From Candidatus Saccharimonadota bacterium (lineage in GTDB: Bacteria > Patescibacteriota > Saccharimonadia > Saccharimonadales > Saccharimonadaceae): 64,000 bases of DNA. Under the pieces are notes generated by a model, which saw only the letters and a program-made list of their open reading frames with translations, had not been told where the DNA came from and ran no database searches. Of this stretch, positions 1 through 63,149 are shown piece after piece. Positions within the stretch are counted from its first letter, which is position 1. Each line of letters opens with the position of its first letter. The stretch spans positions 71,177-135,176 of the forward strand of contig JAUMZA010000001.1 of the NCBI GenBank assembly GCA_030528355.1. The letters are read 5' to 3'. The position numbers were made by a program, and so were the translations under genes.

Positions 1-2220
1 GCTAAACATCTTCATGGCAAGTTGCACAATTGCAAGTAAAATTAATCCTATCACCGACAGCAGCACAACTGCCTGCGAAATCTGCACACCCGTATTCATG
101 AGCGACGTGTCGGTTGGCTTGCCTAACTGCGATTGGGCGTATTCGGTAAATGGTTTTGCCAGGTAGTTTTGTGGATATTGCCGGGCAGTTTCGCCAAATA
201 ATTCAATCGCTCGGCGATAATTGCCTCGTATCATCTCACGCAGCCCCTCGCTCCACGCATCCGATGCCGTACTGACTGAACGGATTGAAAGATTACGGTC
301 TTTTGCAAGCGAACGGATTTCGGCGATATCACGAATAATCATACTTGCCGTGCAGGCACCGTTTGGACAGTTTGCTGTATTGTAGGTGGCATACCCAATC
401 ACTTGCCCGTCATCGCCAAACGCCGGGGCACCAGTAAAGCCGGCGTGCGATGGCGTACCAACTACCGAAAGCCGCTGCCCATTCGCTCCATTAAAGGCCT
501 GCTCAACCTTCCCTTGCCGCAAGAGGAACGTAGGGCGGAATTGCCCAGAAAAGAGCGATCCAATCGTATACATTGGCATGCCAACCACATTCACGGTTGT
601 ACCACCCGGCACTGCCGCCGAGGCAGCTAAATCAACAATTGGAAACGGACCGCCTTTCTTCACCTTCAACAAAGCCACGTCATCTTTTACAATATCGCCA
701 TTTGCAACTTGCTGCTGCAGCTTGCTGTTATCGTACTTTTTGCCCGCTAGCTCAGCCTCAAATACCGAATTTGAAAAGGCAAATTCAAGCCCGCCATCAC
801 CTTTTTTATTCACCGTAATTGGCTTATCTGACGTTTGCACGGCGTACATGTATTTTTCCTTTGCCAGCGAAATACGCTCAGGAGCAATCAGCTCGCTGAG
901 TACATAGATTTTCTCTATCACATCTTGGTCTCGCTCAGCCAAGCCTGCCATTAACGCATCGACATCGGTCTGCATCAAAATACGAGATTCAAACAAATAC
1001 TGCAATACTCGCTCGAGCCGGCTATTAGTCTGGCGTTCATCTGGTGCATTGGTAATATATGCACGAATCGCTTCACGTGGGGTTACATCAATGCTGGTTG
1101 CCGCCGTAGCCACCAAACCTTCTCGTGTAACAAAAAAGCCAGAACCGCCCTTATCAACACATGCCCCGGTCAGTTGCGGGCCAGGTTTGCCATTTGGTAA
1201 GGTAAGCTTTACATCCGCACAGTAAATCATACCAGTTCGCACAGTACTTGGGGCAAGCTTTGCAAACGCATGCACGTTTTTGGTGGCTGCAAGATACGAC
1301 GACACAACCTTTTCCTTACGCTTTTTGTCGCCAGGTTTTTCGGTAGCTTTGCCGGTGGTTGGCACTTCTTTTGGAGGCTCTGGAGTTTTATCATCAAGAC
1401 GATTATCCACCAAGGCGGCACCTTCGGCTGCACCATCAACCGTTGCCAAGCCGTCTATTTCTGGCTTTTTGTATGACACGCCAGCCACTACTTGCTCTAG
1501 TTGTGCAACCGCACTAAAATTGCTGGCACGGATATTATTCACACAGGCAATGTATGGCCTTTCGTGCTGGATAGTAAAGTAGCAATCCTCACGGCGAACG
1601 CTCGTCACGCCAAAACGTTCATCTTTGTGAGTATAGCTCACCATGCGGTAGTCTACATCATTAAATTTTTTATTGCGACTATCACCCGCTGTTACTGCAG
1701 GGTTAGTAGTGCGTTGATCTGTCGCAGCCTTAATCAACATCTCTAGCCGAGAAATACCCCGGTAGCCATCCTTTGCTTCAAGCTGCTTCCAATACGATGG
1801 GTCGCTCGTAGAGGTGATTCGCAGCTCTGGCGCCACCAAGGTAATTTCGCTATGAGCCGCCCGGCTTGTTTCGACTGGTCGTACTCGAATCACACTATAT
1901 GGACGTTTTTCATCAAGGTCACTTGCTGAATAAGTCACTTCACCCGCAAAGCCATAGGCCGCCAGTTCACGGGCATTATATGGCACCGATACACCCAACA
2001 TCGATTCAATCGTCCGGGGTAGCGGTGCGGTATCATCAGTTTCTAACACGGCCGCCATTGCAAATGGTGTTTTGCCTGTGTCTGATGAGCTTTTCATACC
2101 ACAGACAATCCATCCAATGATACCCGCCAAAAGCAAGACACCAGCAAGTATCATTAAGATGAATACGACGCTTGGCCGTGATTTCTTTTTTGTAGTGGGG
2201 TACGGCTGTTGTGGATACAT
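1..2220 (-). CDS. Large membrane-anchored protein (>=740 aa, continues beyond window start) with a degenerate trypsin-like (S1/HtrA-like) domain; missing from the ORF track because it is edge-truncated
   Basis: Hand translation of the minus strand from ATG at 2220..2218 to position 1 gives one open frame with no stop. The N-terminus is basic and is followed by a TM helix (ILMILAGVLLLAGIIGWIVC), and there is a second TM helix near window position 1. Trypsin-fold motifs are present but altered: GGSGFFV...LVATAATS (T where the catalytic His sits in TAAH), DVALLKV (Asp retained) and GFTGAPAF (T where the Ser of GDSGGP sits). Confidence 0.65.
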   Translation of the reverse strand, partial: MYPQQPYPTTKKKSRPSVVFILMILAGVLLLAGIIGWIVCGMKSSSDTGKTPFAMAAVLETDDTAPLPRTIESMLGVSVPYNARELAAYGFAGEVTYSASDLDEKRPYSVIRVRPVETSRAAHSEITLVAPELRITSTSDPSYWKQLEAKDGYRGISRLEMLIKAATDQRTTNPAVTAGDSRNKKFNDVDYRMVSYTHKDERFGVTSVRREDCYFTIQHERPYIACVNNIRASNFSAVAQLEQVVAGVSYKKPEIDGLATVDGAAEGAALVDNRLDDKTPEPPKEVPTTGKATEKPGDKKRKEKVVSSYLAATKNVHAFAKLAPSTVRTGMIYCADVKLTLPNGKPGPQLTGACVDKGGSGFFVTREGLVATAATSIDVTPREAIRAYITNAPDERQTNSRLERVLQYLFESRILMQTDVDALMAGLAERDQDVIEKIYVLSELIAPERISLAKEKYMYAVQTSDKPITVNKKGDGGLEFAFSNSVFEAELAGKKYDNSKLQQQVANGDIVKDDVALLKVKKGGPFPIVDLAASAAVPGGTTVNVVGMPMYTIGSLFSGQFRPTFLLRQGKVEQAFNGANGQRLSVVGTPSHAGFTGAPAFGDDGQVIGYATYNTANCPNGACTASMIIRDIAEIRSLAKDRNLSIRSVSTASDAWSEGLREMIRGNYRRAIELFGETARQYPQNYLAKPFTEYAQSQLGKPTDTSLMNTGVQISQAVVLLSVIGLILLAIVQLAMKMFS

Positions 2221-2245: not shown

Positions 2246-4210
2246 TCATTGTTTGTGGCGGATTTCGGCAATTAAATCACGTAATTCGGCTGCTTTTTCA
2301 AACTCAAGATTGGCACTCGCTAGGTTCATCTGGCCTGTTAATTCTTTAATCAGCGTGGCATACTCCTCTTTTGGAATTTTCTTCAGATCGAGCTTTGGCT
2401 TTGTGCTCTCTTTTTGCGGGATAATGGCGCGCAGGCCTTCATCAATCGCTTTTTTCACACCACGTGGCGTAATATTATGTTTGCGATTATAGGCTTCTTG
2501 AATACTGCGGCGGCGGTTGGTTTCGTCGATCGCTGCCTGCATACTACGAGTTATCGTGTCGCCATACATCAGCACCCGACCTTCAACGTGGCGTGCGGCC
2601 CGCCCAATGGTCTGCACCAGGGCACTTTCGCTACGCAAAAAGCCTTCTTTATCGGCGTCCATAATCGCCACCAAGCTTACTTCTGGCAAATCTAAACCTT
2701 CGCGCAGCAGATTAATCCCCACCAGCACGTCGTACACGCCAGCACGCAAATCACGCAAAATATCGCCACGCTCGAGCGTATCAACCTCGCTGTGAATATA
2801 GGCGGTCTTAATATTGATATCTTGCAGGTAGGCACTTAAATCCTCGGCCATGCGCTTAGTGAGCGTCGTGACGAGCACACGCTGTTTTTTGGCGATACGC
2901 TCACGGATTTCGGCAATTAAATCATCCACCTGACCTTCGGTTGGGCGGACTTCAATTGGTGGATCGAGTAGGCCAGTTGGGCGGATCACTTGCTGGGCAG
3001 GCTCGGGGCTGTGTGCGAGTTCGTACTCGCCTGGAGTGGCCGAAATATAAATCGCCTGGTTAATATGGTTATCAAATTCTTCAAAACGTAAGGGGCGGTT
3101 ATCCAGCGCACTCGGCAAGCGAAAACCATGCTCGACCAGTACTTCTTTACGGGCCCGGTCGCCATTATACATGCCTCGCACCTGTGGCAAGGTCATGTGC
3201 GATTCGTCTACCAGCAATAGCCAATCGTCCGGAAAGTAATCAATCAGCGTAGCCGGCTGCTCGCCCGGTTCACGGTTGCTTAAGTAGCGACTATAATTTT
3301 CAATCCCCTTCACAAAGCCGGTCTCTTCTAGCATCTCTAAATCGTACTTGGTACGCTGTGCCAAACGCTGAGCTTCAAGATGTTTATCGTGCGATTCAAA
3401 CCACGCCAAACGCTCATCAAATTCTTTGCGGATTTCTTCAATTGCGTACCGAATACGCTCTTTTGGTGTCGCATAGTGACTGCTTGGAAAGATCGTAATC
3501 TGTGCTGGCTCGCCCAAAATTTCGCCAGTCAGCGGGTCAAGCCGAGTGATGCGATCAACCTCATCACCAAAAAACTCAATCCGGTACGCCGTATCCATGC
3601 CTGCCGGAAACACATCAACCACATCGCCACGCACCCGAAACGTACCTCGAGCAAAATCAATATCGTTACGCTGATATTGAATATCGGTCAGCTGGCGGAC
3701 AAATTTATCTTGCACCCGACGCTCACCACGCTTGATGGTCATCGACATATCGGCGTAGGTATCCGGCGAGCCAATGCCGTAAATACAACTCACACTCGCC
3801 ACAATAATCGTGTCGCGCCGAGTTAATAGTGCAGTGGTCGCAGCATGGCGTAGACGGTCGATTTCTTCGTTGATTTTAGAATCTTTTTCGATGTAGGTAT
3901 CGCTGCTGGCAATGTAGGCTTCTGGCTGATAATAATCAAAATAGCTCACAAAATAATGCACTTCGTTTTCAGGAAAGAACTGCTTAAATTCGCTATACAG
4001 CTGTGCCGCCAATGTTTTATTATGTGCCAACACCAAGGTTGGTGCTTGGTACTGGGCAATAATATTGGCCATGGTAAAGGTTTTACCCGAGCCCGTTACG
4101 CCAAGCAGGGTTTGTTCACGCTCGCCGGCCTGCAAACCAGCCACCAAGTCTGCAATAGCTTGAGGCTGGTCGCCCGTCGGTTGATACTTCGCAATAAGAT
4201 GAAATTTCAC
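2246..4210 (-). CDS. uvrB: Excinuclease ABC subunit B (UvrB)
   Basis: 654 aa. N-terminus aligns to UvrB ([10 protein letters not shown]...[12 protein letters not shown] Walker A), helicase motifs are present, and there is a C-terminal UvrB/UvrC interaction helix. GTG start. Confidence 0.95.
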
Positions 4211-4228: not shown

Positions 4229-5014
4229 CTAGTTGTAATGGGCACTAGCGAGAATCTCAAACGCTTGCTGATACACGGCAGTATCGAGCTGCTCGATTGC
4301 TTCTTGTACAGTGGCAAAGGTTGCCGGCTCAATCTGTGAGTCAATTGGCCACTGACTCTTGCCACTTGCAAACATAGTCATGCTATACTCACCACTGGCA
4401 GACTTCACACCCCGGCCGCCAATCAGACTAGCAAAGCGTAGATGGCAACCGTCATGTTCGCCCTTTGTGCTCATTACTTTTGACATTGTCAGCATTACTC
4501 GTGGCACAAATCGTCCGCTCTGTACATCTTGCTCAACAAAGGCAGTTGCCGCCACCGTATCAAGGTAGTCGCTGGTTTCTACTGGCTTAACACTCTTAAT
4601 TGTAGTTGACTTTGATTGCCACACGGTTACCTTGCCAAGCTCGCCAGGCTCGCACGGGCCGCCGCCAATCCCGGTAATGCCGGTATTAATCGCTAACTGC
4701 ATCTCACGACCAGGGCTTTGCACGAGCATTACGTCAGCTGGGATGCCATTGATATCGACCTCCTTGGTAGTAAGTTGCCAGTCTTTTGGATACGTAAAAC
4801 AAAGCGTTTCATACGGGGCGCAAGCTTCTTTATGCTGCCTGTCTGGTTCGGCAGTCATGTGCTTCTTGCTTGCGGTTTGCGGTGGCGTTACCACTGACCG
4901 CTGCGACACCCACCAAGCAGCGGCGGCCCCCAGTAGCACCACAACCACCAGCACAACCACTATCATTTTATGAACCGCACCAGCTTGGGCGACATGTGCT
5001 CGAGATTGCTTCAT
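4229..5014 (-). CDS. Hypothetical membrane-anchored protein (N-terminal TM, extracytoplasmic domain)
   Basis: 261 aa ORF with N-terminal hydrophobic helix IVVVLVVVVLLGAAAAWWV. No recognisable catalytic motifs. Confidence 0.55.
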   Translation of the reverse strand: MKQSRAHVAQAGAVHKMIVVVLVVVVLLGAAAAWWVSQRSVVTPPQTASKKHMTAEPDRQHKEACAPYETLCFTYPKDWQLTTKEVDINGIPADVMLVQSPGREMQLAINTGITGIGGGPCEPGELGKVTVWQSKSTTIKSVKPVETSDYLDTVAATAFVEQDVQSGRFVPRVMLTMSKVMSTKGEHDGCHLRFASLIGGRGVKSASGEYSMTMFASGKSQWPIDSQIEPATFATVQEAIEQLDTAVYQQAFEILASAHYN

Positions 5015-5150
5015 CGTTGTCTTCCTTACTTTTTTATAATCGTTACTTCTACGCCCATTGTAGCAACTTCTACGGGCAAAAATTAGTCTAGCATTTTTAT
5101 CGTGCTTATGTTATAATAAAAAGAGTGCTAAATTGCAAAAAGGAAACAGT

Positions 5151-5861
5151 ATGGACCCAAATCTACACCTAAAACAAACGCCTGTAACACCAGGTACACC
5201 ACAGCTATGTGCCCCGCGCGAAATCCTCCTCCAATCTGCCATGTTTCGACTTGGTGATGTTGAAGATGAAATCCGTGCTGGCTACGACGTGGTTCGTAAA
5301 CAGCATAAAACAGTTACTATTTTCGGTTCGGCTCGACTACCAGAAACGAGTGAATATTATCGGGCGGCTCGTGCAGTTGGCCGCAAACTCGCCCAAGATA
5401 ATTACACAGTTATTACTGGTGGCGGTGGCGGCATTATGGAAGCCGGTAATCGTGGTGCCTTCGAAGTGGGCGGCAACTCAGTTGGCTTTAATATCCTGCT
5501 GCCACACGAACAAAGCCTTAATGCTTATACCAACGATTCATTCGCCTTTCGTCATTTCGCTCCGCGCAAAATTGTCATGACATTGTATGCCGACGCCTAC
5601 GTCTTCTTCCCTGGCGGCTTCGGCACGCTCGATGAGTTGAGCGAAATCCTTACATTGGTACAAACCGGCAAAACCACCAAAGCACCAATCATTTTGTTTG
5701 GTACGAAGTTTTGGTGTAAGTTTGATGAGTTTGTCCGCACGCAACTATTAGAAGCCGAACACCTTATTTCGCCCGGTGACGAGCACCTTTATACTATTAC
5801 GGATGATATCGAAGAGGTTGTTCGCCTTGTCCAGGAAAATCGCACCTACTGCGAACACTAA
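5151..5861 (+). CDS. LOG-family protein (cytokinin riboside 5'-monophosphate phosphoribohydrolase-like / TIGR00730 Rossmann protein)
   Basis: Motifs TIFGSARL, GGGGGIMEAGNRGA and PGGFGTLDELSE. The ORF-track start at 5133 is TTG; the ATG at 5151 is preceded by AAAGGAAACAGT. Confidence 0.8.
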   Translation: MDPNLHLKQTPVTPGTPQLCAPREILLQSAMFRLGDVEDEIRAGYDVVRKQHKTVTIFGSARLPETSEYYRAARAVGRKLAQDNYTVITGGGGGIMEAGNRGAFEVGGNSVGFNILLPHEQSLNAYTNDSFAFRHFAPRKIVMTLYADAYVFFPGGFGTLDELSEILTLVQTGKTTKAPIILFGTKFWCKFDEFVRTQLLEAEHLISPGDEHLYTITDDIEEVVRLVQENRTYCEH

Positions 5862-5892
5862 AGTATTTTTCCTGCATAAGATAGTAGTCTAC

Positions 5893-6345
5893 TTATGACT
5901 GACGCAGGTACGTCATCAACTCTGCAAGCCGCTCCGAAGAGACCGAAGCGGCCGCATATCGCCGCTCAAGTTCATCTACCAGTGCAGCCCGCATACCAGC
6001 TAGCGACCGATCCGAAAAGCCGGTCGCTTTTGCTTTATCTGCCATGACATCATCATAATTGAGCGATACACACTCGCCGTCAATCACCGCCCCTGCATAA
6101 GCCGTACGACGCAACAGCTTTTCTAGCTCCTTGCTGTGACGCAAAGCGGCGTATAATTCCTGCGGGGTAGTATCATCAACTGCCAAAGACAACGCACGCA
6201 ACACAGCATGTGATTTACGCCAAATATCAGATAGCAGGGCAATATCAACGCTTTCCGTGCCAGTGGTTGATTCAAATACCTCAAGCTGATGTAGCAATAG
6301 CCTATCGTGCGGCCGCCCTAGCAACACAGCAAGCTGCCTGGCCAT
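5893..6345 (-). CDS. Hypothetical protein
   Basis: 150 aa ORF with compact spacing, directly downstream of the pfkB-like gene in the same orientation. No recognisable motif. Confidence 0.45.
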   Translation of the reverse strand: MARQLAVLLGRPHDRLLLHQLEVFESTTGTESVDIALLSDIWRKSHAVLRALSLAVDDTTPQELYAALRHSKELEKLLRRTAYAGAVIDGECVSLNYDDVMADKAKATGFSDRSLAGMRAALVDELERRYAAASVSSERLAELMTYLRQS

Positions 6346-7313
6346 TACAGTTGCCTTTCCGTGATGGGCATATCATGCAGGACTGCACCAGCGTGCAAAA
6401 TGCCAGTCTTTGCCCCAATTTTACTCACTACCGAAGTTGAGTTGGCACTAGCGTAAATAATTGCCTCTCGCAATGTTTTGCCCTGTGCCCACTGACTCAA
6501 AAAGCCAGAACCAAACGCATCGCCCGCACCAGTGCGATCAACCACATTCACCTCCTCGTAGATGCCCGCCTGAACGATTGTTTTGCCATCGGTAGCAACC
6601 ACTCCATTTGAGCCATCACTTACAATTACCGTTGGCACAAATCGCAATAATTTACGAGCCAACTCTTCCGCCGTTTCACCAGAGATAATCTGCTGGGCCT
6701 CTTCTTTATTCACCAATACCACATCGGTATCCTCCAGTAGTGCTCGCAGCTTATGTGGCTGCTTGAGCTCACCCTTGCCCGGATTAAAACATACTTTTAT
6801 ACCATGACTATGGGCATAGCGGAAAATACCGTCGAGCACCTCCATGCTACCCGCCATACTTGAAACATACAACCAATCCGGCGATAATCCCGTAAGGTCG
6901 AAGTTCTTTGCATGGTAGTGCGTACTCGCCCCCCGATAGGTTAAAATGGTACGTTCGCCATCTGGTGCAAGCAATAGCACTGAATAGCCAGTATTAAACT
7001 TTTCTGAGTAGCTTACCAGTGTAGTATCGACGCCTTCTTTATCCAAATCAGCTAAAACTGCCTGCCCGGCTGGGTCGTGCCCTACCGTACCCATAAAATG
7101 AGTTCGCATGCCTTGCCGTGCAAATGTCACCGCTGCATTGGTTGCACCACCGCCAGTACTAAAGTCAATATTGTTAACATCCACCTTTGCCCCAAGCTCA
7201 AGTTTCATGAAGCATTCGTGCGGATTATCACACACTGGTGCAAATTCATCACTATGGCTTAAAAATACATCCTGCACCGCTGCCCCGATGGTTACTATGG
7301 TTGGTTTATTCAT
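6345..7313 (-). CDS. PfkB-family carbohydrate kinase (ribokinase/1- or 6-phosphofructokinase-like)
   Basis: N-terminal VTIGAAVQDVFL, GGGATNAA motif, and C-terminal DTTGAGDAFGSGF (the DTxGAGD anion hole). Confidence 0.85.
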   Translation of the reverse strand: MNKPTIVTIGAAVQDVFLSHSDEFAPVCDNPHECFMKLELGAKVDVNNIDFSTGGGATNAAVTFARQGMRTHFMGTVGHDPAGQAVLADLDKEGVDTTLVSYSEKFNTGYSVLLLAPDGERTILTYRGASTHYHAKNFDLTGLSPDWLYVSSMAGSMEVLDGIFRYAHSHGIKVCFNPGKGELKQPHKLRALLEDTDVVLVNKEEAQQIISGETAEELARKLLRFVPTVIVSDGSNGVVATDGKTIVQAGIYEEVNVVDRTGAGDAFGSGFLSQWAQGKTLREAIIYASANSTSVVSKIGAKTGILHAGAVLHDMPITERQL

Positions 7314-8224
7314 TACACTACCGCCTTATTTACACTGCCAAATGCAGTTATTTTTTCTTCTACTACCGCTTGTACTGCCGAATACACTTCTGGCATCAGC
7401 TTAACTACCGCATATTCGTGCGGATGTTCAGCTAGCACTTTTTCGAGCGTGGTACGAAACGCATACCGCATATCCGAATTAATGTTGATCTTGCTCACTC
7501 CAATTTTAGCGGCTTCTTCAAAATAATGCAGCGGCGTACCACTGCCGCCATGCAAACTAATGCCACAGTCGATCGCCTGGCGAATTGCTGTTAGTAGCTC
7601 TAGATCAAGCTGCTTTGGCACTGGATATTTACCGTGCAAGTTACCGACCGCTGCTGCAAAAGTATCAATACCAGTCGCCGCAACAAAGGCCTTGGCACCA
7701 GCTGGTGTACTAAAGGTTTTTTTGACCTCTTCGTAATCGATAGCACTAGTATGGACGTTGCTGCTACCGCCAAAATAATGCGGCTCGCTTTCTACCAACG
7801 CACCAGTAAAGGCAGCATACTGCACCACTTCACGGGTTTTTGCAATAATTTCTTCCTCTGAAGCATCGTGGTTTGCCTGGCTAATGTCAATATGGATAAA
7901 TTCAAACCCGGCATCAATGGCACGCTTGCAATTTTCAACTGTTGGGCTATGGTCAAAATTGAGATACATTTCTATTCCATATTCCGCCTTGTAGTTGTCT
8001 ACCATATCACGGATATTTTCCATGCCAATTGCCTGCACTTCACCATCGCTCACCTCAATTAACACTGGTGATTGCAACTTTTGTGCCGCCCGTGCAATCG
8101 CAATGAGTGTTTCTTGATTATCTACATTAAATGCACCTACCGCAAAATGTTGCGAACGAGTACGATGGTACAAATATCGAGCCTTGGTGGTATTATCGCG
8201 AATTTCACGAATCGTTAAACCCAT
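7313..8224 (-). CDS. fba: Class II fructose-1,6-bisphosphate (or tagatose-bisphosphate) aldolase
   Basis: 303 aa with class II FBA motifs (HFDHS region, LHGGSGTP). Confidence 0.85.
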   Translation of the reverse strand: MGLTIREIRDNTTKARYLYHRTRSQHFAVGAFNVDNQETLIAIARAAQKLQSPVLIEVSDGEVQAIGMENIRDMVDNYKAEYGIEMYLNFDHSPTVENCKRAIDAGFEFIHIDISQANHDASEEEIIAKTREVVQYAAFTGALVESEPHYFGGSSNVHTSAIDYEEVKKTFSTPAGAKAFVAATGIDTFAAAVGNLHGKYPVPKQLDLELLTAIRQAIDCGISLHGGSGTPLHYFEEAAKIGVSKININSDMRYAFRTTLEKVLAEHPHEYAVVKLMPEVYSAVQAVVEEKITAFGSVNKAVV

Positions 8225-8282
8225 ACTCCCCCTTAAAGTTATTATGCTTACTGTGCTTTATTATACAGAGATTTGCGTATTT

Positions 8283-9278
8283 CTAAAAGCCACGATGATA
8301 CTGCGGAGTGTGAGCAACAAATGCAGCAATTTGCGGAGCAAGCTTTTCTGCAGTCAGCCCAAAAAAGTCAAGCAACTCTGCTGGAGTGCCACTCTCTCCA
8401 AATCGATCAGTCACCCCAAAGCGTTTTAGTGGCGTTGGGAGTTGGTCTGTGAGCATCTCGGCAATTGCACCGCCAAACCCGCCAGCAATCTGTGCTTCCT
8501 CGGCTGTTGCAATACGACCTGTTTTCTTTACGCTTCGCAAAATTGTTTCGGCATCAAGCGGCTTGATTGTTGGTACGTGCACTACCTCAGCGGACACCCC
8601 CTGCTGCTGTAGCAGTGTAGCGGTGTGCAGCAACTGTGCTGTCATTGTGCCAGTACCACACAGGGTAATATCAGTGCCTTCACGCAACACGTACGCTTTA
8701 CCAATTACAAATGGCGTGTGTGGCAGGCTAAAAATCGGCGACTTCTCACGAGCCAAACGCATATACGCCGGGCGACTATCCTGTGCAATGGCCTGGGTTG
8801 CCTGGGCAGCCTCGTGTGCGTCACCAGGGGCAATCACTACCATATTAGGCAGCACCCGCATCATAGCAATATCTTCAAGCATCTGATGTGTTGCTCCGTC
8901 TGGGCCAACCGTAATACCTGCATGACTGCCAATCACTTTTACTGGCATATCATTCAGGCAGATAGTCGTACGAATCTGCTCCCAGTTGCGGCCAGGGTTA
9001 AATGCTGCATAGCTTGCAGCAAACGGAATCTTACCCATTCGTGCCATACCGCTCGCAACTGTGACTAAATTTTGCTCTGCAATGCCAACTTCAATAAAAT
9101 GCTCCGGAAAGGCCTGCTTAAAATGATGCATCTGCACACTTTCGGTAAGGTCGGCACATAGTGCCACCACTGCATCATTCGCCTCGCCAGCTGCACGCAA
9201 GCCTCTGCCAAAGCCAGCTCGGGTTGTATCATATTGCGGGTTACCAGCTATAAAATCTTGTGCTAGCTGATAGGTCAT
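8283..9278 (-). CDS. Transketolase, C-terminal (pyrimidine-binding) subunit
   Basis: 331 aa matching the transketolase Pyr and C-terminal domains. Overlaps the upstream N-terminal subunit gene by 4 nt. Confidence 0.9.
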   Translation of the reverse strand: MTYQLAQDFIAGNPQYDTTRAGFGRGLRAAGEANDAVVALCADLTESVQMHHFKQAFPEHFIEVGIAEQNLVTVASGMARMGKIPFAASYAAFNPGRNWEQIRTTICLNDMPVKVIGSHAGITVGPDGATHQMLEDIAMMRVLPNMVVIAPGDAHEAAQATQAIAQDSRPAYMRLAREKSPIFSLPHTPFVIGKAYVLREGTDITLCGTGTMTAQLLHTATLLQQQGVSAEVVHVPTIKPLDAETILRSVKKTGRIATAEEAQIAGGFGGAIAEMLTDQLPTPLKRFGVTDRFGESGTPAELLDFFGLTAEKLAPQIAAFVAHTPQYHRGF

Positions 9279-41363: not shown

Positions 41364-41438
41364 TGGCTGGGATGGAGGGATTCGAACCCCCGAATGGCGG
41401 GACCAGAACCCGCTGCCTTACCACTTGGCGACATCCCA
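41364..41438 (-). tRNA. tRNA-Gln (anticodon CUG)
   Basis: 75 nt cloverleaf TGGGATGTCGCCAAGTGGTAAGGCAGCGGGTTCTGGTCCCGCCATTCGGGGGTTCGAATCCCTCCATCCCAGCCA. It has a U1:A72 pair, G73 and an encoded CCA, and is collinear with E. coli tRNA-Gln. Confidence 0.85.
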
Positions 41439-51514: not shown

Positions 51515-51590
51515 TGGTGGAGCATGGCGGATTCGAACCGCCCACCTCTTCCATGCCATGGAAGCGCTCTACCAAATGAGCTAATACCCC
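51515..51590 (-). tRNA. tRNA-Ala (anticodon GGC)
   Basis: 76 nt: GGGGTATTAGCTCATTTGGTAGAGCGCTTCCATGGCATGGAAGAGGTGGGCGGTTCGAATCCGCCATGCTCCACCA. It has the G3:U70 pair, A73 and an encoded CCA. Confidence 0.9.
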
Positions 51591-63073: not shown

Positions 63074-63149
63074 TGGTGCGGGTTAGGAGACTCTAACTCC
63101 TGGCCTCTTCCATGGCAAGGAAGCGCTCTAACAACTGAGCTAAACCCGC
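63074..63149 (-). tRNA. tRNA-Gly (anticodon GCC) with unusual U19-A56 tertiary pair and A73 discriminator
   Basis: GCGGGTTTAGCTCAGTTGTTAGAGCGCTTCCTTGCCATGGAAGAGGCCAGGAGTTAGAGTCTCCTAACCCGCACCA. All four stems are perfect; the T-loop is TTAGAGT and the D-loop AGTTGTTA. Confidence 0.75.

Follow-up and report, generated by a model that had tools for sequence, protein, structure and literature searches.

Locus, gene and full-length product

The 64-kb window analyzed here (the whole stretch of 64,000 nucleotides, from contig JAUMZA010000001.1 of a Candidatus Saccharimonadota bacterium) begins with most of a minus-strand gene for a membrane-anchored protein of the HtrA type that has lost two of its three catalytic residues and is, as detailed below, a pseudoprotease. 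The minus strand is free of stop codons from the ATG at 2220 to base 1, giving 740 codons; by our own estimate, the chance of an open frame of this length is ~(61/64)^740, or roughly 1e-16. We found no earlier in-frame start upstream of ATG 2220, and the homologues P0002 and P0007 start alike (MYPQQ/MYPNQ). The N-terminus of the product is basic and starts MYPQQPYPTTKKKSR. An earlier note, made from these letters, had described the frame (at least 740 amino acids (aa)) correctly and had called it invisible in the list of open reading frames (ORFs). This list does show only short ORFs at the window start, but the absence is merely an edge effect: it omits ORFs that run off an end, and the 740-codon frame is missing because it is truncated at the window edge.

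An exact-sequence look-up identified the full protein as NCBI entry MDO4684133.1 (P0262); the window translation matches its first 740 aa without a difference. Further proteins encoded in the window map to the same metagenome-assembled genome. At 882 aa it is hardly the giant that the earlier note had announced, although the note was right that the chain runs on past the window after a second transmembrane (TM) helix: beyond base 1 lie the remaining 142 aa only, a tail with many Pro (26), Gln (26), Ser (19) and Ala (18) residues. This tail starts RPQAV... and is cytoplasmic according to the two-TM topology. The C-terminus is also available in near-identical DNA, in Logan contig L012, which matches window bases 1-2726 at 98.2% identity and contains the whole gene, with gatC-gatA-x-gatB after it. 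A hydropathy scan finds two hydrophobic segments only, at about aa 17-42 and aa 714-738. Three motifs mark the protease domain: ATAATS at aa 372-377 (containing Thr375), DVALLKV at aa 514-520 and GFTGAP at aa 594-599 (containing Thr596). The features of the locus are listed here; residues of the structural model are in P0001 numbering, to which 22 is added to obtain that of the window protein, and the evidence is given in brackets (AF2, AlphaFold2; pLDDT, predicted local distance difference test).

1..2220, minus strand: partial coding sequence, aa 1-740 of 882, of the two-TM HtrA-like pseudoprotease MDO4684133.1 (open frame; identity to P0262; L012)
2170..2220, minus strand: cytoplasmic basic N-terminus, aa 1-17 (...TTKKKSRPS), with the ATG at 2220-2218 (translation; homologue starts)
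2095..2169, minus strand: TM1, aa 18-42 (hydropathy scan; helix at residues 2-20 of the P0001 model)
1471..2022, minus strand: extracytoplasmic N-domain, aa ~67-250, of PsbP/Mog1-like alpha-beta fold, with conserved Cys213/Cys226 (AF2; Foldseek; Cys conservation)
1285..1464, minus strand: predicted-disordered, poorly conserved linker, aa ~253-312 (pLDDT <50 at P0001 253-278; 25% mean pairwise identity)
325..1284, minus strand: HtrA-type (S1C, Trypsin_2) double beta-barrel with degenerate triad, aa ~313-632 (Pfam; profile; AF2; Foldseek)
1096..1098, minus strand: Thr375 (ACC) at the catalytic His position, TNAHV of HtrA aligning with TAATS (alignments)
883..1080, minus strand: helical insert of ~65 aa, aa ~381-446, between the His strand and the Asp strand (helices at P0001 359-422)
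679..681, minus strand: Asp514 (GAC), the triad Asp kept in DVALLKV (42/42 homologues; 129/129 active relatives)
445..450, minus strand: clade-specific Ser591-His592 ('SHAG'), 4-5 residues before the nucleophile site (column conservation)
433..435, minus strand: Thr596 (ACT) at the nucleophile Ser position, GNSGGP aligning with GFTGAP (alignments)
127..324, minus strand: TPR-like helical hairpins, aa ~633-698, where canonical HtrA has its PDZ domain (helices at P0001 611-676; TPR_2 matches)
4..105, minus strand: TM2, aa ~706-739 (AF2 model; hydropathy scan)
2246..4210, minus strand: uvrB, 25 nt upstream of the pseudoprotease gene (Pfam; synteny)

Fold and domain architecture

To place the protein we used a set of 42 close homologues (44-100% identity, 817-885 aa), all from Candidatus Saccharibacteria, to which all counts out of 42 refer. 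Pfam assigns the window protein to Trypsin_2 (PF13365) with 46 bits against a gathering score of 27.6 (E=1.2e-11), and the same family matches 42 of 42 homologues. A single-sequence search matched HTRA1 weakly, while the profile of the 42 sequences matches HTRA1 and HTRA2 in the PDB with E-values from 1e-6 (HTRA1) to 1e-3, setting GSGF..DG.I.TNAHV opposite GtGFfvsrdGlvatsas and GN(S/A)GGP opposite GlaGaP. Scores with the NCBIfam DegP/HtrA equivalog models are far under their cut-offs. The AF2 model built on the family alignment has a pLDDT of 79 overall and >90 in most folded parts, with a predicted TM-score (pTM) of 0.74; across the protease domain, which forms a chymotrypsin-like double beta-barrel, pLDDT is ~90. 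Foldseek matched this model to HtrA3, HtrA1, DegS, DegP and Deg1 with probability 1.0 and a TM-score to target of ~0.7. Family search, profile and structure thus agree on the trypsin-like domain that the earlier note had recognized; the basic N-terminus, the two TM helices and the large extracytoplasmic region of that note are present as well.

In P0001 numbering, the model runs from TM1 (2-20) through an alpha/beta N-domain (45-250), a disordered linker (253-278), the protease domain (291-610, including the helical insert at 359-422) and hairpins (611-676) to TM2 (684-717) and a disordered tail. The N-domain modelled alone (AF2 run m3b722f9ac705, pLDDT 80.6) is matched by Foldseek to PsbP, CyanoP, DcrB, Eag/SciW, MTC28 and LpqN (probability 1.0, E-values from 8e-5 to 1e-3, TM-score to target 0.5-0.62). 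The Pfam PsbP families do not match this domain in the window protein or in any of the 42 homologues, and the likeness is at fold level only. The hairpins after the protease domain are TPR-like, with a Pfam TPR_2 match in 11 of the 42 members and weak matches to designed TPR proteins and BamD; no Pfam match to a PDZ domain occurs in any of the 42. The helical insert between the His and Asp strands (His-to-Asp spacing 139 aa) is a family-wide feature that active relatives have as well.

The region between the helices is extracytoplasmic: there are two TM segments only, with positive charges at their cytoplasmic ends, and it holds three conserved Cys pairs. The protein is therefore an N-in/C-in two-pass membrane protein with an ectodomain of ~660 aa, composed of a PsbP/Mog1-like domain, an HtrA-type domain with its helical insert and TPR-like hairpins, and with a disordered Pro/Gln-rich cytoplasmic tail.

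Loss of the catalytic triad in the uvrB-linked clade

Sequence, profile and structure comparisons all place Thr375, Asp514 and Thr596 at the His, Asp and Ser sites, so that the His-Asp-Ser triad is no longer present, and the His and Ser of 129 active relatives fall in the Thr375 and Thr596 columns. The earlier note had proposed just this pattern, with His and Ser replaced and Asp kept, and it extends throughout the close homologues. At the His column we observed Ser in 37, Thr in three and Ala in two members, and His in none of the 42. The nucleophile column is more varied, with Ala in 26 members, Thr in six, Val in three, Ser and Ile in two each, and Leu, Met and Glu in single members. The Asp column holds Asp in 42/42. 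As to the two threonines of the window protein, whose conservation the earlier note had proposed to check, Thr is found in 3/42 and 6/42 members at the two columns. The HtrA domain is thus a pseudoprotease, in which the general-base His and the nucleophile Ser have been lost and the fold, the triad Asp, the L1 glycines (G..G.P) and three Cys pairs have been kept.

Clade-specific changes cluster near the old active site: Ile to Ser591, Ala/Gly to His592 and Thr to Arg568. Ser591 is present in 41/42 and His592 in 40/42 members of the dead clade, where active relatives have Ile and Ala/Gly/Ser, and His592 is the sole conserved His in the protease domain. From the motif register we take Ser591-His592 to correspond to about chymotrypsin positions 190-191, in the wall of the S1 pocket.

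All 11 loci from named genomes belong to Candidatus Saccharibacteria/TM7 and all are degenerate, with the triad reading SDA in seven, SDR, SDT and GDS (L002) in others, and the gene split by a frameshift in L011. The L002 gene (L002:5818-8457, in a named Saccharibacteria genome) reads Gly-Asp-Ser, with 'GFSGAP'; because the nucleophile Ser is retained there while the His is gone, it suggests that His was lost before Ser in at least that lineage. The L011 gene (L011:5791-8764), from one Saccharibacteria metagenome-assembled genome (MAG), appears as two overlapping ORFs (5791-7224 and 7013-8764), reflecting either a frameshift error or genuine pseudogenisation.

Loss of catalytic residues has not been accompanied by decay of the gene. 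Over the 740 codons shared with L012 there are 35 synonymous and 2 non-synonymous differences. Identity among the 42 homologues is 44-67%, and the mean pairwise identity follows the architecture, with 50-63% in the folded domains, 25% in the linker and 39% in the tail. Invariant residues common to active relatives include the first-barrel Cys pair, G339, G346, T350, D492, G525, P527 and G572, and further G575, P577, G587, T590, Y591, R608, W634, Y646, F653 and Y660. The cluster of the dead form in Ca. Nanosynbacter contains 833 member sequences, all of 840 aa. Given the 35:2 ratio, the conserved folded domains and the conserved uvrB-X-gatCAB synteny (below), the gene is under strong purifying selection and is not decaying.

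A degenerate branch of an otherwise active family

An exhaustive profile search returned 1306 representatives at E<=1e-3. At the stricter E<=1e-30 there are 152, of which 143 were aligned. TNGHV...D...GNSGGP is kept in 129 of the 143. In the six representatives nearest to the query both His and Ser are gone, and seven form a His-Asp-Asp (H-D-D) group with 'GNDGAP' (one reads HND and one is without the His column). A neighbour-joining tree unites the 13 non-canonical sequences in a single clade, which divides into two subclades. Since 129 of 143 relatives are intact and the non-canonical sequences group together, the window protein is a member of a degenerate branch of an otherwise active family.

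The family has a common layout into which the window protein fits: an N-terminal TM helix, a protease domain with helical insert, a TY..C....C..RD...W...YPxNYLA block, a second TM helix and a low-complexity tail. The topology is identical in active, H-D-D and dead members. Active members (e.g., P0232; JGI names 'S1-C subfamily serine protease' and 'peptidase S1 and S6, chymotrypsin/hap') share with the window protein the domain order, the Cys312/Cys332-type pair, the helical insert, W634 and the YPxNYLA motif. In contrast, they keep TNGHV and GNSGGP, and they have Ile-Ala and Thr where the dead clade has Ser-His and Arg. A metagenome scan with the family-specific C-terminal block recovered 80 loci, and every one with the motif region on its recovered ORFs carries motifs of the TNGHV and/or GNSGGP type; a few loci are too fragmentary to include this region.

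In Nanosynbacter, genomic position also separates the two forms, the active members lying between rpsG/yajQ and fusA and the dead clade downstream of uvrB. About 60 of the 80 loci are of human metagenomic origin, with the gene order rpoC-rpsL-rpsG-yajQ-X(825 aa)-fusA; P0054 has the same context. The S12, S7 and EF-G proteins of one of these loci (L039) are exact matches to Ca. Nanosynbacter sp. HMT-352/TM7 oral taxon 352. The 90% cluster of this active paralogue has 4741 member sequences. The dead form occurs in Ca. Nanosynbacter as UJD06275.1 (in an 841-kb genome) and in TM7 HOT-348 (L003). Active and dead Nanosynbacter proteins align end to end, with 24% identity over 841 columns and the same two-TM layout. 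The records returned for P0232 and P0248 do not overlap, and no contig among them carries both forms; within the 64-kb window, a hidden Markov model search of all six frames found no paralogue. For the active relatives L014 and L015, the flanking genes gave no taxonomic placement.

Several observations on the relatives can be added. The intact ~825-aa paralogue of human-oral Ca. Nanosynbacter (L039:8234-10711, also L028-L086, L100-L102 and L014:4474-6888) lies in the str operon, and the interval from rpsG/yajQ to fusA is an unusual site for a membrane protease gene. In the long BNJ* contigs L029, L045, L049, L053, L059, L064, L070 and L099 it is broken into 2-4 ORFs; it is intact in near-identical short-read assemblies, and the breaks look like long-read indel error rather than biology. 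A short form of 526 aa, from another Saccharibacteria lineage (L025:8885-10462 and L026:4150-5727), is without the PsbP-like domain and keeps both TM helices and an intact triad. The H-D-D sister clade is uvrB-linked (L013:1097-3736, L018:7126-9759 and L019:2290-4923; also P0048-P0053 and P0097). We know of no S1-fold enzyme with an Asp nucleophile, and the 'GNDGAP' clade may represent either a step towards inactivation or an alternative chemistry.

Genomic context and evolutionary history

The dead form invariably follows uvrB at a distance of 25-30 nt and precedes gatCAB, as seen in the window and in L003, L009, L012, L017 and L103-L108. As a syntenic anchor of the clade, uvrB recurs in L003, L009, L017, L018 and L103-L108, with no evident functional link to the pseudoprotease. 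The H-D-D form likewise follows uvrB (L013, L018, L019). UvrB beside the H-D-D loci and beside the K-D-G locus L017 is 80-86% identical to window UvrB, a range that overlaps the 81-88% of named Saccharibacteria. An intact-triad gene occupies the same slot in L087, in the order uvrB (72% identical)-X(831 aa)-gatCAB-dnaE, and the short form does so in L025 and L026, in the order uvrB (80%)-X(526 aa)-DEAD helicase-gatCAB. The simplest history would be an ancestral active protease beside uvrB; where a second active copy exists or existed, the uvrB-linked copy would have lost Ser, giving H-D-D, or both His and Ser.

The slot itself is evolutionarily plastic, since other genes occupy it in the cultivated Saccharibacterium Southlakia epibionticum: in the SEML1_0537-0540 region, genes for a 588-aa glycoside-hydrolase-like protein and a 117-aa protein fill the interval from gatC to uvrB, both non-essential in transposon sequencing (Tn-seq; PMC10633639). 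The sole Trypsin_2 protein of this species is a canonical HtrA with PDZ, also non-essential, so that it offers no pseudoprotease orthologue and no transferable fitness data (PMC10633639).

Near uvrB in the window, 4229-5014 (minus strand) encodes a 261-aa single-TM protein just upstream of uvrB, and L003 and L009 have a similar-sized ORF in the same place. It has faint matches only (T7SS_Rv3446c, PsbP_2, FliL). A relationship to the pseudoprotease N-domain was considered and rejected: the hhalign probability is 2%, and only a short V(K/R)PVETS motif is held in common. A LOG-family gene (Lysine_decarbox/SLOG cluster 4) lies at 5133-5861 (plus strand). The neighbourhood of PfkB kinases, LOG and uvrB is found in L017 and L018 as well, and from this recurrence we regard the PfkB-LOG-uvrB block as syntenic across Saccharibacteria. 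The sole Rfam matches at gathering threshold in the 64-kb window are the tRNA genes at 41367-41438, 51518-51590 and 63077-63149 (minus strand).

Function: a proposed binding or scaffold protein and its rivals

What might a protease fold do once its catalytic residues are gone? Saccharibacteria are ultrasmall obligate epibionts with genomes of ~0.7-0.9 Mb, and in so reduced a genome a conserved, surface-exposed protein of 880 aa is unlikely to be idle. We consider it probable that the protein is a conserved, non-catalytic, surface-exposed binding or scaffold protein derived from HtrA. It would act as a membrane-tethered holdase or adaptor module on the outer face of the cytoplasmic membrane, with the former substrate groove holding peptides, unfolded proteins or partner proteins. 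Retention of the L1 glycines, the proline and the strand framework suggests that the groove still binds extended peptides, and the PsbP-like and TPR-like domains, which are of kinds that typically mediate protein interactions, would offer further protein-interaction surfaces. The analogy with the pseudoprotease MamO of magnetotactic bacteria points to such a role, and, by the precedent of MamO and its active paralogue MamE, the protein might cooperate with a catalytically intact paralogue of the same family. We infer all three elements, i.e., the absence of activity, the binding function and the partnership, and a pseudo-protease used for binding rather than catalysis, as the earlier note had put it, is the best reading of the data.

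Four points weigh against this interpretation. The predicted inactivity is read from residues. Conservation extends to the Ser/Thr that occupies the His site (40/42), to the invariant Asp and to the clade-specific His592 (40/42), so that a non-canonical catalytic arrangement keeps a small probability. The co-occurrence of dead and active forms is shown at the level of the genus Ca. Nanosynbacter. Finally, S. epibionticum is without the gene at the syntenic slot, which means that the protein is not universally required; the sole Tn-seq data set for Saccharibacteria comes from this species.

A bolder proposal, which we regard as unlikely but worth stating, is that the uvrB-linked clade is a neofunctionalised epibiont surface receptor or adaptor. 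Its rebuilt S1/L1 pocket (Ser591, His592, Arg568 and the Ser/Thr at the His site) would bind a peptide from the host cell wall or envelope, or would regulate the str-operon paralogue in a mixed HtrA-like oligomer. If this were true, the H-D-D 'GNDGAP' clade would mark an intermediate or an alternative chemistry, and the stepwise series H-D-S, H-D-D and (S/T)-D-(A/T) would document, in a single phylum and with unusual clarity, the path from protease to pseudoenzyme.

It is more doubtful still that the protein is mainly a transmembrane receptor, in which the dead groove, remodelled by Ser591, His592 and Arg568, senses an extracellular ligand, such as a host- or envelope-derived peptide, and relays the signal via TM2 to the tail. 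The two-TM topology with its long disordered cytoplasmic tail is conserved in the family, the polar and charged changes around the former S1/L1 region are conserved and clade-specific, and surface sensing is plausible for obligate epibionts. However, the tail is poorly conserved (39% mean identity), of low complexity and without a recognizable signalling domain; active relatives have the same TM-tail layout, which is therefore no novelty of the dead clade; and the neighbours are uvrB and gatCAB, with no cognate regulator nearby.

Continued hydrolysis with non-canonical residues, whether by Thr596 as nucleophile or by a rewired site of Ser/Thr375, Asp514 and Ser591-His592, is in our view very improbable. 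The window protein does have Thr at both lost triad positions, the Ser/Thr at the His column, His592 and the Asp are conserved at the frequencies given above, and the L1 glycines and Pro are kept. Against this, no member has His at the general-base position, and the nucleophile column is mostly Ala (26/42) and otherwise includes V, I, L, M and E, so that Thr596 has not been selected. His592 is only 4 residues from the nucleophile column and, at about chymotrypsin position 191, presumably points away from residue 57. The Thr-based variant that the earlier note had offered as an alternative is rejected, because Thr is a minority state of a non-conserved nucleophile column. The same Ser-to-Thr change occurs in MamO, which is inactive and can do without this Thr (PMC4794232).

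That the gene has no function of its own any more, and is a relic on its way to a pseudogene, is scarcely credible: the lost catalytic residues, the variable nucleophile column, the frameshift-split gene of the L011 MAG and the absence of the gene from the syntenic site of S. epibionticum are outweighed by an intact 740-codon frame with a synonymous to non-synonymous ratio of 35:2, by dozens of non-catalytic residues that are invariant across the 42 homologues and active relatives, and by the 833 Nanosynbacter members, all of 840 aa.

Significance and comparison with known systems

NCBI already lists the gene, with a generic, automatically assigned name ('trypsin-like peptidase' annotation), and our search of the literature on Saccharibacteria and Nanosynbacter proteases and pseudoproteases yielded no paper about it. 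Pseudoproteases derived from HtrA are known from before, and the finding of one by itself opens no long-standing question. Novel features are the architecture, the occurrence throughout a clade of Saccharibacteria and the gradation from H-D-S through H-D-D to dead forms. The result corrects the functional expectation that the annotation conveys, from degradation to probable binding or scaffolding, and the pair of dead and active paralogues provides a tractable test in Nanosynbacter, which is genetically manipulable.

Three groups of known proteins are instructive to compare. The N-domain has the alpha-beta-alpha sandwich of PsbP/Mog1/DcrB/DUF1795 (Eag, SciW) proteins, which are generally protein-binding or chaperone modules; the likeness stops at the level of the fold and does not allow a function to be carried over from PsbP-like proteins. 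The best sequence and structure matches are the quality-control proteases HtrA, DegP, DegS and HTRA1 (MEROPS S1C). In common with canonical HtrA, the window protein has the GxGF...G...T motif that precedes the His strand, the D(V/I)ALLK motif and an L1 loop of the form G..G.P, and like DegS it is extracytoplasmic and tethered by an N-terminal TM helix. It differs from canonical HtrA in having neither His nor Ser, in TPR-like helices instead of PDZ, in a second TM helix with a cytoplasmic tail, and in ~110 extra residues between the His and Asp strands.

Among known bacterial proteins, MamO comes closest, an HtrA-family pseudoprotease of magnetotactic bacteria with Thr in place of Ser, which is non-catalytic and promotes the activity of its active paralogue MamE (PMC4794232). 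Its triad, including this Thr, is dispensable, and pseudoproteases of this type arose after redundancy with an active copy (PMC4794232). The sequence relationship between MamO and the window protein is at the general HtrA family level only, and there are clear differences. MamO keeps His and Asp, whereas the window protein has lost His too. MamO is fused to a TauE transporter domain and binds metal via a surface di-His motif; no TauE match was found in the window protein or the 42 members. What sets the window protein apart is its PsbP-like N-domain, together with the helical insert, the TPR-like hairpins, the pair of TM helices and the Pro/Gln tail; it also has no magnetosome context. Both are nevertheless membrane-anchored, keep the chymotrypsin fold with the nucleophile Ser changed to Thr, and have a non-catalytic function, which in the window protein is the predicted one. 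As in MamO-type pseudoproteases, the HtrA fold is kept, the degenerate site is conserved clade-wide and the gene is under selection, which makes Saccharibacteria a second bacterial lineage, after the magnetotactic bacteria with MamO, in which the HtrA scaffold has been repurposed.

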